DNA of 5,412 nt from a virus (IMGVR_UViG_2648501669_000015:1-5412), one strand, 5' to 3'. Numbered from the stretch's first letter, positions 1,201 through 5,225 are shown. The notes: generated by a model from the letters alone, not told the origin. Numbers and translations are program-made.

Positions 1201-2931
1201 TTAAAGCGAACGGATCCCGTAGGACTCAATGTGGTCAGACAGCGTGTCTTCTTTCTCAAATAGCATGCAACGACCAATCGCCATAATCAGCGCCACAGCA
1301 CCATCGATTTTGTTTTCGTTGCCTTGTTTGATCGGACGAACAACATCATCGTCGCCGGGAATGTGCTTTCCAATCACGTTGCTGATACACCATGTCATCA
1401 CAGGATTACCATCATGATGAAAACGCCCGGCCTCAATAGCCGCCTCAAGTTCCTTCATGGGATCCGACATATTGGTGTAGTTCTGAATGATGGTAATAGG
1501 GTTTAAGTTTTCATCAGCAAGGTGGTGAGAAAGGTTTGTGGCTCCGTGGGGATCTATAGGTGACTCCTCCACTGCGTTTAAGCGATTTGCTTCTTTCGCA
1601 GACTCAAGGATCTCCCGGTAATCAATTTCCGCACCATCGGTAACGGTAATAAATCCCCCTTCAACCCACTTCTGATAACGTTCTGCTGTGCGACTGTCTG
1701 TCACATCAGCGCTGTAGATTGTGTCGTAGGGAACAAAAAACTTGGGTGCGACACAATAATAATGCGTTTTACCGTCAATCTCTCGGGTAAAAAGCCGTAC
1801 CATCGCGTTCAAATCCAGCTTTCGCGCAAGGTCAAACGCCAGAATGCAGGTATGCCCCTCAAAACGCTCCAGCGTCAGACTCCTGTCTTCACATTTCTGC
1901 CAGTTCACAAGATTGAAGAAGGCGTCTTTTGCTGCCACCCAGATATTCAGATGTTTCGTTTTGAATACGCCCACTTTTCGTGGGTTGTTAATTGCCGCGC
2001 GCTGTTGAGATAACAGGTAATCGCTGTAGACAGAAATCCCCATATTGGGGTTCGCTTTACGCAATACCGCCGGATCTGTCCAGTCATCCCCGTCGTCAAT
2101 GGTATAAATAATCCCGAACAGTTCATCATTGGGCACAATCCCTTCAAGCATTTCGATCACTTCACGACGTTTGTCGTAGCATGGTCCTTCAATGTTATAG
2201 CCCGCAGTGGTGATACCAAAAATCAGCGGCTGACGACGTGCCCCCATCCCGGTTTGCATCGTCTGGTAAAGCGCATCGGTCTGATGCTCGTGATATTCAT
2301 CAATGAGGGCGCAACTCGGCGACGCGCCGTCCCCGGGATCTCCAATCAACGGTTCAAAACGGGCACCGTCCTCCGGACGGCTCATGCTTTGAGCATGTAC
2401 TTCAATACCAAATGCTTCACGCAATGGTTCCGTGCGTTGCGCCATCAGTCTGGCTGGACGAAAAACTTCCCACGCCTGTTTCTCTGTTGTGGCCCCGGAA
2501 TACACTTCAGCGCCAAATTCATCATCGCAGGCAAACATATACAGACCAACGCCAGCAGACATTGCTGATTTCCCGTTTTTACGGGGTATTTCGTTGTAAG
2601 CCTCGCGAAATCGACGCAGGCCGCTCTTTTTTCTCACCCACCCAAACACAACACAAATACAGAACAACTGCCAGGGTTCAAGCGTAATGGGCATCCGTTT
2701 AAATGCCCACTCCCCTTTGGTGTGTGGCAAAAGCTGGATAAATTTCGCTACACGCTCAGCTTTATCCTTATCAAATTTAAACGGATAGTTTTTTTTAGCT
2801 GAGTTTTCCAGGTCATCAAGGTGACGCTGGCAGGCCAGAACGACATAACGGCAAACCTGAATTTTTCCGCGAACCACGTCACGTGCATACTGATTTGCGG
2901 CGTTAACGTTCACGTAATTTTTTCGTGTCAT
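1201..2931 (-). CDS. Phage terminase large subunit (Terminase_1 / HK97-like TerL: ATPase plus nuclease)
   Basis: A 576-aa ORF with the characteristic length and sequence character of HK97-type large terminases (N-terminal ATPase region ...[14 protein letters not shown]..., acidic C-terminal nuclease region ...[12 protein letters not shown]...). The ATG at 2929-2931 overlaps the TGA of the upstream small-terminase gene (ATGA). Confidence 0.92.
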
Positions 2932-3398
2932 AGGTTTTTAAATGGATTATCGCTCCCCTGCTTCGGCGTGATAAGCCGCTGCCGACTGGCAGGATCGAGC
3001 CCTAATAAACTACCGAATGTCACCATTTGTCTGGCGGCCTCATTTGCCGCCGTGAGTGCCGGGTTTTTCTTTGGCCCCACCTCACTCTCTACCGTAATCC
3101 CAACGCGCATAACCTCCTGCTGCGACTCATGCCAGTTGCGAAAAGCAGTGCAGAATGCAACGACATTATGCAAATCAGTAACATAAAGAACTCGCTGGGC
3201 ACAGAGCTCACGAATAATGGTATCCCACATATGGCGAGCGGTTTCATCAAACCACTCGGGAGGGTCAGCATGGGTGATCGGCGTGAATTTTGGCTCAAAC
3301 TTATTTAATGCCCGCTTGCCGGGATTGCCTGCCAGCTCCTTACGGGTGGTCGGCTTCGGCTTTCTCCCTCTTCCGGGCGCAACAGATTTTCCTGACAT
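2928..3398 (-). CDS. Phage terminase small subunit, P27 family
   Basis: Starting from the internal ATG at 3396-3398 gives [38 protein letters not shown]..., a typical P27-type TerS N-terminus. The track's longer ORF (to 3599) would overlap the HNH gene and the putative cos region. A weak AGGA lies about 10 nt upstream. The stop overlaps the TerL start. Confidence 0.85.
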
Positions 3399-3513
3399 GT
3401 CAAATCCTGAAATTTTTAATTTCGCGGGTGTAAAAATTTGACGGGGCGGGCGGTCCCGGACAGCCAGGGTTGCAGGGATTTGACCCGCCCCTCCCCACAA
3501 GTGAGAATAATTA
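3399..3513. other. Candidate cos / packaging-initiation region (HNH-to-TerS intergenic)
   Basis: A 115-bp non-coding gap with ATTTGAC at 3436-3442 and 3478-3484 (direct, about 42 bp apart), each followed by a GC-rich element in opposite orientation (GGGGCGGG at 3443-3450, CCGCCCC at 3485-3491), and an inverted GTCAAAT copy at 3399-3405 abutting the TerS start codon. Its position between HNH and TerS matches where cos lies in HK97-like phages. Confidence 0.35.
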
Positions 3514-3864
3514 TCACCTGATTCGTTCGCGCGCTGTTTTCGCTTTATGGCAGGGCCAGCACAGACTCTGCAGGTTGCTGTCTGCGTCTGTTCCGCCATG
3601 CGCTTTCGGGATGATGTGGTCGACAGTTTTCGCCTCGCTCACCACACCAACACGCAGACACAACTGACACAGACCTTTATCGCGCTTCAGTATACGGGCG
3701 CGAATCACCGTCCATTTTGAGCCATAGCCACGCTGGTGGCGGCTCAGTCCGCGCTGGTGCTGCACCCAGCCTTCACCCCGATGTTTATCGCAGTAGCCAG
3801 AGCTGTCTGTTGTTGTGCCTGCGCAGCCTCGCTTACGGCATGCGCGGGGGATTCGTGACGGCAT
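3514..3864 (-). CDS. HNH endonuclease (phage packaging-associated HNH)
   Basis: A 116-aa ORF with a Cys-rich N-terminus (CRKRGCAGTTTDSSGYCDKH) and an HNH core (DHIIPKAHGGTDADSNLQSLCWPCHKAKT). It lies immediately upstream of cos and TerS, as in HK97-like phages. Confidence 0.9.
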   Translation of the reverse strand: MPSRIPRACRKRGCAGTTTDSSGYCDKHRGEGWVQHQRGLSRHQRGYGSKWTVIRARILKRDKGLCQLCLRVGVVSEAKTVDHIIPKAHGGTDADSNLQSLCWPCHKAKTARERIR

Positions 3865-3892
3865 AGAACTTCACTCATCTGATGTTAAAATT
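3864..3892 (+). promoter_or_regulatory. Candidate sigma70 promoter with extended -10 (TGtTAAAAT) for the plus-strand moron gene
   Basis: TGT at 3883-3885 followed by TAAAAT at 3886-3891, with a weak -35-like TAGAAC at 3864-3869 (about 16 bp spacing). It lies 34 nt upstream of the ATG at 3925, in the divergent gap between HNH and the plus-strand ORF. Confidence 0.25.
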
Positions 3893-3924
3893 CCCACCCT
3901 TTAAAAAAACAATACGGAGGACAA

Positions 3925-4125
3925 ATGAAAAACACGATTTCTAAAGGCTTTCACCGGGTAGGAATTCTGTTAGCTATTCTGGTGTTCATTTTCGGCCTTT
4001 TATCAACAGAGACCCGGGGGTTTTCACTGTTTGATATCCTTGTTTCCCTGATATCTGCCTTGTTGGTATACAGCATCATCAGGCTTGTGGGATGGGCCAT
4101 TAAAGGATTTATGAAAGACAACTAA
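3925..4125 (+). CDS. Small 2-TM membrane protein (66 aa), moron-like accessory gene of unknown function, counter-oriented to the phage late genes
   Basis: Strong Shine-Dalgarno GGAGG at 3916-3920, 4 nt before the ATG. The protein MKNTISKGFHRVGILLAILVFIFGLLSTETRGFSLFDILVSLISALLVYSIIRLVGWAIKGFMKDN has two hydrophobic helices separated by a short polar loop. The region is visibly AT-richer than the flanking phage genes (by eye, not computed). It is the only plus-strand gene in the window. Confidence 0.6.
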   Translation: MKNTISKGFHRVGILLAILVFIFGLLSTETRGFSLFDILVSLISALLVYSIIRLVGWAIKGFMKDN

Positions 4126-4135
4126 AGCATTATCG

Positions 4136-4162
4136 CAGCCCATCGCTGTGTGAAGGGCTGCT
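4136..4162. terminator. Perfect 7-bp stem hairpin (GCAGCCC / GGGCTGC, 13-nt loop) just 3' of the plus-strand moron gene; possible terminator or RNA-stability element without a U-tract
   Basis: The inverted repeat was read directly and starts 11 nt after the TAA stop at 4123-4125. No T-run follows on either strand, so an intrinsic-terminator role is uncertain. Confidence 0.25.
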
Positions 4163-4172
4163 GTAATGCCTG

Positions 4173-4185
4173 TTACTCAGTAACG
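4173..4185. promoter_or_regulatory. Short perfect palindrome GTTAC-TCA-GTAAC between convergent genes
   Basis: Read directly from the sequence. It could be a protein-binding site or a small hairpin; its function is unknown. Confidence 0.15.
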
Positions 4186-4204
4186 ACTGCGCCTTCCGGC
4201 AATT

Positions 4205-4333
4205 TCACGTCTTATCAAACAGCGCCAACAATTCAGAATTTATCTTCTCGAAGCATTCTGAATTAAGTCGAGTGCCAACTGCTACATTTGCTGATGCAGC
4301 AGCTTTTTTATTTAGATTATTTTTCTTCTCCAT
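4205..4333 (-). CDS. Hypothetical small protein (42 aa, Lys/Ala-rich, non-hydrophobic), AT-rich, downstream of the lysis lipoprotein
   Basis: Hand translation of the minus strand gives MEKKNNLNKKAAASANVAVGTRLNSECFEKINSELLALFDKT with a TGA stop at 4205-4207. AAGAGGGT lies about 7 nt upstream of the ATG at 4331-4333. It falls below the ORF-track size cutoff. It could equally be non-coding. Confidence 0.3.
   Translation of the reverse strand: MEKKNNLNKKAAASANVAVGTRLNSECFEKINSELLALFDKT
4290..4309 (+). terminator. Weak candidate intrinsic terminator (plus strand): GCTG-ATGCAG-CAGC hairpin followed by TTTTTT
   Basis: A 4-5 bp stem at 4290-4303 is followed by a T6 run at 4304-4309. It is about 165 nt downstream of the plus-strand moron gene stop and lies inside the minus-strand 42-aa ORF. 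Confidence 0.25.
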
Positions 4334-4372
4334 TAATCTACCCTCTTAAATATAGATGCGGAGTGTCAGCGA

Positions 4373-4555
4373 TCAGTTCTGCAGACACTGCCGAACACCG
4401 TCGACAATTTCACAGACCTGAGAAGCCGTATCGAAAAGCTGGCGCGCCTTATCCAGGCTAACGCATCCCACCAATAAAAAAGGCACCAGTATCACTACCA
4501 GTGCCCATTTCGCCGCCGTTCGCGGCATTCTGTGTGTCCAGTGTTTTCTGCTCAT
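4373..4555 (-). CDS. Small lipoprotein (about 60 aa precursor) in the lysis cassette; possible o-spanin-like or other lysis/exclusion lipoprotein
   Basis: Starting at the internal ATG at 4553-4555 (AGGTG about 4 nt upstream, and after the endolysin stop) gives MSRKHWTHRMPRTAAKWALVVILVPFLLVGC|VSLDKARQLFDTASQVCEIVDGVRQCLQN. This has a basic N-region, a hydrophobic core and an L-V-G-C lipobox, leaving a short mature peptide with three Cys. The track's longer ORF (to 4627) would overlap the endolysin 3' end. Confidence 0.5.
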   Translation of the reverse strand: MSRKHWTHRMPRTAAKWALVVILVPFLLVGCVSLDKARQLFDTASQVCEIVDGVRQCLQN

Positions 4556-4569
4556 AACACACCTGGTTA

Positions 4570-4947
4570 TCAGCGTTTCAACTGAAAGTGAGGCCCGTCT
4601 TTCAGTGTTTTCCAGTCCCCGCCCCATTCGATGGCAGTTCCCAGCTCTGCGGCAGCCTGCTTAAATGCCTGCGCGATTTTCTCGTACAGAGGCCAGTCCC
4701 ATGACACCTGGCTGCCACCCCAGGCAACAACATCCACCGCATCACCGGTCAGATGGCGGCTGTTCATGGTCTGGCTCTTACCTTCTGCGACCAGCTGTTT
4801 CTGGCGATACTTACTGCGCAGGCCTTCCGTAATACCGAAATCAACCTCCGTCAGCTCAAGGGCACGGCGAACGACAGCAACCAGCTGTGGTTTGACGCCC
4901 TCCAGATTCTTTTCGCTGCGACGACTAAATCTGAATTTACCCGACAT
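4570..4947 (-). CDS. Endolysin, peptidase M15 family (L-alanyl-D-glutamate / D-Ala-D-Ala-type zinc peptidase)
   Basis: The protein carries zinc-peptidase M15-type motifs: SRHLTGDAVDV and WGGDW...DGPHFQL. The likely start is ATG at 4945-4947 with GAGGTG upstream; the track's GTG at 4953 is an alternative. It lies directly downstream of the holin-like gene. Confidence 0.82.
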   Translation of the reverse strand: MSGKFRFSRRSEKNLEGVKPQLVAVVRRALELTEVDFGITEGLRSKYRQKQLVAEGKSQTMNSRHLTGDAVDVVAWGGSQVSWDWPLYEKIAQAFKQAAAELGTAIEWGGDWKTLKDGPHFQLKR

Positions 4948-4949
4948 AT

Positions 4950-5225
4950 TCACCTCAACAATGGAAAGATTTTTGTGACGTTCCCGCGTGCGCGTATCAC
5001 CAGCACGCAGAACAGCAGGTTAAAAAACACCTGGAACCAGTCTGTTTCTAACGGGCGACCACACAGATAGCTGAGTGGAACAAAGCCATAAAGCAACATC
5101 AGCAGCCAGGCCAGCCATGACATCAGCGGTTTATGTCTGGAATCACGGCGACGATAAAAAAAGAGCGTCAGCACGATAACCGTGCATAACGCCACATTCA
5201 GTAATCCGGGAAGGTTACTTAACAT
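4950..5225 (-). CDS. Putative holin (about 91 aa, three predicted TM segments, basic C-terminus)
   Basis: ATG at 5223-5225 is preceded by GGAGG with 5 nt spacing. The protein MLSNLPGLLNVALCTVIVLTLFFY...LMSWLAWLLMLLYGFVPLSYL...WFQVFFNLLFCVLVIRARGNVTKIFPLLR is hydrophobic. The TGA stop at 4950-4952 abuts the endolysin start, as in holin-endolysin cassettes. No holin family is recognised by sequence. Confidence 0.45.
   Translation of the reverse strand: MLSNLPGLLNVALCTVIVLTLFFYRRRDSRHKPLMSWLAWLLMLLYGFVPLSYLCGRPLETDWFQVFFNLLFCVLVIRARGNVTKIFPLLR

Follow-up and report, generated by a model that had tools for sequence, protein, structure and literature searches.

The window analyzed here is a 5,412-nucleotide (nt) stretch of viral DNA (IMGVR_UViG_2648501669_000015:1-5412), and our subject is the short interval in it between a plus-strand gene for a 66-amino-acid (aa) protein and the minus-strand lipoprotein gene that ends a lysis cassette. 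By megablast and comparison with annotated relatives, the window is the lysis-to-packaging region of a phiP27-like Escherichia prophage; the IMG/VR contig L009 matches it exactly over the ~640 bases read around the interval. Its late strand is the minus strand, on which the order from right to left is holins and endolysin, lipoprotein, a 42-aa open reading frame (ORF), HNH endonuclease and terminases (Table 1). A first-pass annotation of this DNA had placed three hairpins and the 42-aa ORF between the ends of the two flanking genes, and had proposed either antisense regulation or a bidirectional terminator. The gene ends are correct (plus-strand ORF to 4125, minus-strand ORF to 4373). We find that the interval is probably a mosaic joint, located in the variable slot for accessory genes that separates the lysis cassette from the HNH-cos-terminase module, and made of four pieces of different origin. 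Among these pieces is a small gene that, in most relatives, has the predicted transcription terminator of a convergent neighbor written into its coding sequence.

Table 1. Features of the interval and its surroundings (positions are those of the whole window)
Feature	Position	Strand	Basis or remark
P27-family small terminase and large terminase	1201-2931	-	Gene map
HNH endonuclease	3514-3864	-	Gene map
66-aa gene, two hydrophobic segments	3925..4125	+	ORF call
Conserved 17-pair stem-loop	4127..4169	-	Arms 4127-4144 and 4152-4169
Relic of L33-family gene 3′ end (...LPEGAVVTE-stop)	4173..4207	-	Comparison with intact 98-aa genes
Probable 42-aa gene of a 40-51-aa small-protein family	4205..4333 including stop	-	Homologues, open frame, ribosome-binding site
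Perfect 10-bp inverted repeat, 15-nt loop (codons Asn-Ser-Glu...Asn-Ser-Glu)	4230..4264	.	Inside the 42-aa ORF
Eroded putative Rho-independent terminator, interrupted 5+4-bp stem and T6	4279..4309	+	Inside codons 9-19 of the small gene
Shine-Dalgarno GAGGG, 7 nt upstream of the 42-aa gene ATG	4341..4345	-	Sequence
Lipoprotein, 60 aa, lipobox LLVGC, end of lysis cassette	4373..4555	-	phrog_7528, E = 5e-38
Two holins and M15 endolysin	4570-4953	-	Gene map

The 42-aa ORF and its ribosome-binding site lie where the first-pass annotation had put them. Judging from its homologues and its open frame, we take the ORF to be a genuine gene of a conserved family. This family of 40-51-aa proteins includes P27p31/L31 of phiP27, and its member in Escherichia coli A36 is annotated by the Prokaryotic Genome Annotation Pipeline (PGAP) as WP_258796094.1. 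The family was visible only to sensitive searches: a word-index search with the single sequence returned its own cluster alone, an exhaustive single-sequence search reached a 44-aa relative with 65% identity (E = 1e-6 for P0002), and a profile built from four sequences retrieved 15 proteins (P0001-P0015; E = 1e-23 to 9e-8). These come from E. coli, E. marmotae, Serratia and metagenomes. Pfam, PHROGs, NCBIfam and PADLOC returned nothing significant for the 42-aa ORF, and no mention of the motif or the accession numbers was found in the searchable literature. Pattern scans at the DNA level yielded only chance palindromes in unrelated bacteria (one genome per species) and, in metagenomes, one extra variant and one chance hit.

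The coding status of the ORF, which the first-pass annotation had left ambiguous, was assessed in 15 distinct DNA variants that align without gaps over 31 codons; 14 of them were used for frame scoring. The frame is open in all 15 diverged variants. Four of the other five frames each carry 21-27 stops among the 14 variants, and the antisense frame that shares the ORF's wobble positions carries 5. The ratio of nonsynonymous to synonymous polymorphism (pN/pS) in the ORF frame is 0.46 for 8 sequences and 0.62 for 14, lower than in the four control frames with a different wobble placement (0.9-1.4); the antisense wobble-sharing frame has similar values (0.52 and 0.61). Between the closest relatives that also carry the convergent neighbor, the ratios of synonymous to nonsynonymous changes are 7:3 and 9:6. 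With its family conserved and its frame open, the ORF withstands the refutation that the first-pass annotation had proposed for it. Upstream of the ORF, a purine-rich box and a start codon are present in 9/9 variants with upstream read, within flanks that are otherwise unrelated. In the common E. coli type of the locus, of which the collection has ~400 blocks, the ATG and the endolysin stop codon share bases as ATGA, an arrangement that points to coupled translation and a product of 51 aa. In lineages with the small ORF behind the endolysin, the frame of the ORF is also open back into the endolysin 3′ end (L112 2501-2710 and phiP27 L002 3024-3239), which is why 69-71-aa proteins are annotated there. 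At a Salmonella locus (L128 1754-2164) the small ORF lacks a start codon of its own and forms the in-frame C-terminal end of a 136-aa ORF; either it is fused to the upstream gene or the frame was miscalled.

The AlphaFold model of the 42-aa protein is one continuous helix (mean predicted local distance difference test score, pLDDT, 79), and the protein is predicted to be a single soluble amphipathic alpha-helix. The peptide is hydrophilic, with a grand average of hydropathy (GRAVY) of -0.43 and a best 19-aa Kyte-Doolittle window of 0.28. The first-pass annotation had called the ORF lysine-rich. Its lysine codons are real, as the complement of a T-tract on the opposite strand, but lysine richness is not a kept property of the protein, because net charge is not conserved (+2 in the window, -5 in phiP27 and +5 in P0009). 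A role as a lysis accessory protein, such as a spanin or a cationic disruptin, was rejected: the protein lacks a hydrophobic segment, its charge varies, and the gene tracks its convergent partner rather than the lysis genes. A weak A/U hairpin at the start codon (4313-4319/4334-4340) was also dropped, as it is not conserved in L031.

The T-tract belongs to the hairpin with a T6 run that the first-pass annotation had listed. This hairpin is present (stem within 4279-4302, T6 at 4304-4309) and traces to a predicted Rho-independent terminator that covaries in relatives. In the window a terminator scan flags it on the plus strand, where a stem of 6 pairs, of which 3 are G-C, stands ahead of CTTTTTTATT. 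It thus has a G+C stem-loop with an immediate U-tract, but it is weak. In the relatives that carry the convergent partner, the corresponding element lies ~75 nt past the partner's stop codon on the strand opposite the small ORF and has a 9-12-pair stem and a 4-6-nt loop; a T5-T6 run directly follows the stem in every variant but phiP27, which has a T-rich tail. The scan flags this terminator independently in phiP27 and in L130. Among 12 distinct variants, pairing holds in 92.4% of the cells, changes on both sides occur at 5 pairs, and none of 500 shuffles reached the covariation score. In the frame of the small ORF, the T-tract reads Lys-Lys and the stem-loop reads Ala-Ala-Ala-Ser-Ala-Asn-Ala-Ala-Ala. 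Pairing joins the third positions of codons to one another, which allows synonymous sites to covary. In L131 and L132 the hairpin and T-tract are kept with a different stem sequence, and the peptides there read TMVSANTMAA and TAISENTAAA. Because an altered stem gives an altered peptide, the apparently invariant AAASANAAAG motif is an RNA signal rather than a protein motif, a point on which annotators should be cautious.

The owner of this terminator is a gene on the opposite strand. The small ORF converges on it in phiP27, in the enterotoxigenic E. coli (ETEC) locus L006, in the common E. coli type, in P0002, P0009, P0011 and L125/L126, and in a Serratia prophage. The partner was found in every partner-bearing lineage examined and encodes ~67-109 aa, mostly 89-90 aa; the extremes are L125/L126, with 67 aa for the longest ATG-initiated ORF, and Serratia, with 109 aa. 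The 3′ ends of the two genes overlap by 20 nt in most loci, and Serratia L115 has a 13-nt gap instead. A reverse search that started from partner homologues found the small ORF in the same position in 5/5 further loci, and among the partner-homologue loci it is fused to a longer upstream frame in one Salmonella phage. The first-pass annotation had thus been right that convergent, overlapping genes are involved, in that the small ORF overlaps an opposite-strand ~90-aa gene in relatives; that gene is absent from the window. The surroundings of the pair include P27-type HNH and terminase modules, a lambda-type GpA terminase (L131) and the Mu-like baseplate and head-fiber region of a Serratia genome (L132). 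These differing surroundings imply that the pair moves as a unit between unrelated phage types. The partner is modeled as a four-helix protein (pLDDT 79). A fold search of this model against the PDB gave no match below E = 1 and hence no functional lead, and Pfam, PHROGs, NCBIfam and PADLOC gave nothing significant for the partner.

The window belongs to a partner-less clade with E. coli A36, E. marmotae and L133, in which the small proteins end in ...FDKT. Past codon 39 the window's sequence continues as a relic of an L33-family gene, and within the clade the small ORF occurs in three different junction contexts. The terminator hairpin has a stability of -16 to -22 kcal/mol where the partner is present and of -9.4 and -6.5 kcal/mol in the window and in E. 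marmotae, which lack it. Nonsynonymous changes in the clade cluster in the half of the ORF that encodes the terminator: the window branch has A17V and A19V, the other branch has A18I, and E. marmotae has A11D. The C-terminal half has 4 synonymous and 4 nonsynonymous changes. This pattern fits decay of the stem once the partner's need for a terminator, which had held it, was gone, and the C-terminal helix may still be under selection. We had considered relaxed selection on the whole ORF in this clade, and softened that view because L133 has synonymous changes in the C-terminal half.

The ORF also contains a region that the first-pass annotation overlooked, the perfect inverted repeat with arms at 4230-4239 and 4255-4264. 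It is kept in part of the family, where 74.7% of the cells are paired versus 70.2% in shuffles (7/500 as high), and there are some compensatory changes, by which Asn-Ser-Glu...Asn-Ser-Glu becomes Asn-Pro-Ala...Asn-Ala-Glu. In partner-bearing relatives the repeat is possibly a hairpin of the partner's 3′ untranslated region (UTR), although this is unproven.

Alternatively, the 42-aa ORF might be no gene at all, and the block only what remains of the 3′ UTR and terminator of the ~90-aa partner after that gene was lost, with the open frame as a by-product. We consider this unlikely. The T-tract and stem-loop do fully account for codons 1-20, and the ORF lacks matches in all four protein family libraries. 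However, the Shine-Dalgarno sequence and start codon lie 25-30 nt past the T-tract, outside the partner transcript, in the nine variants with upstream read, and the loop codons Trp-Phe-Glu-Lys-Val vary mostly at third positions. The peptide shifts when the stem sequence shifts, as in L131 and L132, yet no variant has acquired a stop, against an average of 1.5-2 stops per sequence in four of the five remaining frames; pN/pS is lowest in the ORF frame and in its wobble-sharing antisense counterpart, and only the former is stop-free. Similarly, all 10 codons that differ between the window and E. marmotae differ nonsynonymously, but the changes in the C-terminal half across the clade are evenly divided, and the block persists without the partner in all three junction contexts.

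The two remaining pieces lie on the other side of the small gene. Folding bears out the structured character that the first-pass annotation had attributed to the region: positions 4120-4200 fold at -33 kcal/mol on either strand (z = -4.3; 0/200 shuffles as good), and positions 4200-4345 give z = -2.9 on the plus and -3.5 on the minus strand. The first of its hairpins has the perfect 7-bp stem claimed for it, GCAGCCC at 4135-4141 with GGGCTGC at 4155-4161, displaced by one base from the reported 4136-4162. This stem is the G+C core of a larger stem-loop, in which a 2×2 internal loop separates it from a 6-bp outer stem (4127-4132/4164-4169). The second, the palindrome GTTAC-TCA-GTAAC, exists at 4172-4184 rather than 4173-4185 and is too short to count as structure. 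It falls inside the L33-family relic, where it encodes Val-Thr-Glu-stop. The three hairpins therefore have three separate origins, and the notion of a single structured device was abandoned.

The relic consists of the last 10 codons and stop of a 98-aa late-strand gene, L33 of phiP27 (phrog_1935), in a frame that differs from that of the 42-aa ORF. The gene is intact in L001, phiP27 (L002) and the ETEC locus L006, and window positions 4126-4207 align with its 3′ end and the stem-loop in all three. The window keeps only ~35 bases of it; the rest would have been replaced, leaving only the relic.

The stem-loop was surveyed in 80 IMG/VR loci fetched with the L33 protein as anchor. The L33-family stop codon was located in 65 of these, and the stem-loop directly follows it in 65/65. 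Beyond the stem-loop, right after ...TAATG, the sequences split into many unrelated classes. The constant position behind the stop codon and the divergence immediately beyond it mark the stem-loop as the 3′ boundary of a conserved module. Among 19 distinct variants the pairing is kept in 91% of the cells, and one-sided changes are nearly all G·U or U·G on the late strand, where the other strand would have A·C mismatches. The stem-loop would thus be part of the 3′ end of the L33-family module and fold in late-strand RNA. No U-tract follows it on either strand (the tails are CTGTTACTC on the plus strand and, on the minus strand, TTTAGTTGTC in the window and unrelated sequences elsewhere), and the terminator scan does not flag it. 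A search of the whole window against Rfam gave only chance-level hits at E up to 10. The stem-loop presumably protects or processes the RNA 3′ end of the late transcript, and it may also be a shared sequence where modules are exchanged by recombination.

A further explanation, close to the alternative that the first-pass annotation had offered, is that the interval mainly insulates transcription in both directions, keeping the plus-strand 66-aa gene apart from the late operon, and that the ORF is irrelevant. A stem-loop of about -20 kcal/mol or better does stand right after the 66-aa stop codon, with the T6 hairpin further along the plus strand, and a terminator relic does exist here. However, the relic is one-directional and eroded, and the strong stem-loop lacks a U-tract in both directions. 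Phages that lack a plus-strand gene have the stem-loop too, immediately before the HNH ribosome-binding site, and a late-strand terminator at this position would cut off expression of the HNH and terminase genes. Insulation as the main function is accordingly quite improbable.

The 66-aa gene is a presence/absence insertion exactly between the stem-loop and the HNH ribosome-binding site. It is annotated in a relative as WP_053272783.1 and is absent from phiP27, A36, E. marmotae and L133. Its protein has a best 19-aa Kyte-Doolittle window of 2.25, and its best family match, to Transgly_assoc (PF04226; E = 0.034), is below threshold. The only 3′ structure of the gene is the stem-loop, which is borrowed and lacks a U-tract. 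The first-pass annotation had raised the possibility that the transcripts of the 66-aa and 42-aa genes regulate each other by antisense pairing, as in a type I toxin-antitoxin system or a small-RNA-controlled membrane toxin. The genes do converge, one product has hydrophobic segments, and if the stem-loop does not terminate, the 66-aa 3′ UTR would be antisense to the small ORF up to the T6 hairpin; but the two genes occur independently (L001 has the 66-aa gene but no small ORF; A36, E. marmotae and L133 have the small ORF but no 66-aa gene), the small peptide is hydrophilic, the hairpins come from unrelated modules, no Rfam family matches, and a consensus scan, which could miss a weak promoter, found no sigma-70-like promoter for an antisense RNA or otherwise on either strand of 3865-4372, so that we regard such a pair as very improbable.

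We therefore return to the mosaic joint. Its four pieces would be the stem-loop, the L33-family relic, an inserted block at ~4208-4367 and, inside the small gene, the terminator of the partner. The inserted block would have brought the Shine-Dalgarno sequence and the 42-aa gene, which elsewhere is half of a mobile convergent pair; in the lineage of the window the partner would have been lost and its terminator would have decayed to the weak T6 hairpin. Late transcription presumably runs through the lipoprotein gene, the small gene, the relic and the stem-loop and then into the HNH and terminase genes, with the small protein made from its own ribosome-binding site. Transcripts of the 66-aa gene would first reach the stem-loop and next the weak T6 hairpin, which would limit antisense transcription into the lysis genes.

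Several observations weigh against this account or parts of it. The joint is not a simple deletion from the phiP27 arrangement, a scenario that we rejected because the lipoprotein gene lies upstream of the small ORF here and downstream in phiP27, and the order of events is not reconstructable. No promoter was detected for the 66-aa gene. Covariation in the stem-loop is weak, with double changes at 2 pairs and a score that 50/500 shuffles reach, and its wobble asymmetry could reflect a strand-specific C-to-T mutation bias. For the small ORF, the lowering of pN/pS is no more than moderate, and synonymous sites are almost saturated; moreover, the terminator dictates half of the peptide, which leaves the C-terminal 19 codons and the open frame as the main sources of the coding signal.

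Some features of the flanking genes bear on annotation. A mechanical ORF call of 84 aa (4373-4627, minus strand), which starts with MGRGLENTERRASLSVE, is an alternative frame of the endolysin 3′ end and recurs in relatives solely because the endolysin is conserved. The true start of the lipoprotein is the internal ATG at 4555, and PGAP annotates its relatives as 183-nt genes. Within the signal-peptide codons of the lipoprotein lies a terminator-like hairpin of the late strand (4481-4506, minus strand), with 11 pairs followed by TTTTTATTGG and a T-run to ~4471; phiP27 is flagged at the corresponding site (L002 2647-2622). Should this hairpin terminate transcription, a late gene would contain a terminator, upstream of HNH and terminase. 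On the packaging side, the region between HNH and the small terminase (window 3395-3520) is identical to the phiP27 cos region, and the phiP27 annotation places the cos site at ~3443-3452 (GGGGCGGGCG). A mechanical ORF at 2928-3599 (223 aa) must overrun the true small-terminase start because cos maps within it; relatives are annotated with 156-160 aa. Just upstream of the same lysis cassette, toxin cargo differs between related prophages: L112 carries Shiga toxin A and B subunits (1-1102), as in phiP27, and L133 an LT-II-type heat-labile enterotoxin pair, Enterotoxin_a and LT-IIB (1-564).

Under the mosaic reading, what looked like a regulatory knot is phage mosaicism of an ordinary kind, in which a stem-loop at a module boundary adjoins the relic of one gene and an accessory gene without its partner. 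Mosaic module boundaries, late-operon accessory genes, gene relics and Rho-independent terminators are familiar. The convergent pair with a terminator written into its small gene, orphaned in the window, is undescribed; neither the small protein nor its partner nor the stem-loop has a name in the libraries or the searchable literature. The small-protein family is newly defined and absent from Pfam, PHROGs, NCBIfam and PADLOC. With ~12 of its codons set by a terminator on the opposite strand, it shows cleanly, in nature, how a terminator and a coding sequence can use the same bases, and the partner-less clade, in which the stem decays and the ORF stays open, lets one see in nature which codons answer to which constraint. 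Our likeliest guess at function is that the small protein binds its usual ~90-aa partner. As a long shot, the small helical protein and the ~90-aa four-helix protein might form an undescribed two-gene module that is mobile among unrelated temperate phages and in which one protein neutralizes the other. If so, it would travel in phages of Escherichia, Salmonella and Serratia; the prophage would supply one of the two proteins and the late operon the other, and with the partner's terminator placed inside the small gene, convergent transcription would tie their expression together. The window would then hold an orphaned half, which may have gained a partner-independent role.

The locus can be compared with several known systems. 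With type I toxin-antitoxin systems such as Hok/Sok, TisB/IstR and Ldr/Rdl, the window shares small ORFs, convergence and structured RNA; it differs in that the 42-aa peptide is not hydrophobic, no antisense RNA gene was detected, and the window's two genes are not linked in relatives. Phage morons are self-contained accessory gene units inside late operons, as in HK97 and the lambdoid phages. Like morons, the 66-aa gene and the relatives' ~90-aa partner vary in presence between conserved late genes and oppose late transcription, and the partner has its own Rho-independent terminator. Unlike in morons, this terminator lies inside a second, convergent small gene that travels with the partner, and no promoter was detected for either accessory gene; the window keeps only the small gene and the decayed terminator. 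The stem-loop, placed right after a stop codon without a U-tract, resembles stem-loops that protect or process mRNA 3′ ends as well as the boundary sequences between modules in mosaic temperate phages. It shares with them a tolerance of wobble changes in the strand that is transcribed, and a loss of homology between phages precisely where its 3′ side ends; judged by its sequence, it differs from them in having no Rfam family and little true covariation. Finally, the partner's terminator has the G+C-rich stem of 9-12 pairs, 4-6-nt loop, T5-T6 run and covariation of the Rho-independent terminators of convergent genes, some of which overlap coding sequence. It would work in one direction, since the late strand has an A-tract before the stem and not a U-tract after it, and, unlike those terminators, it lies wholly within the convergent coding sequence, where it fixes the ~12 codons; the copy in the window is degenerate.

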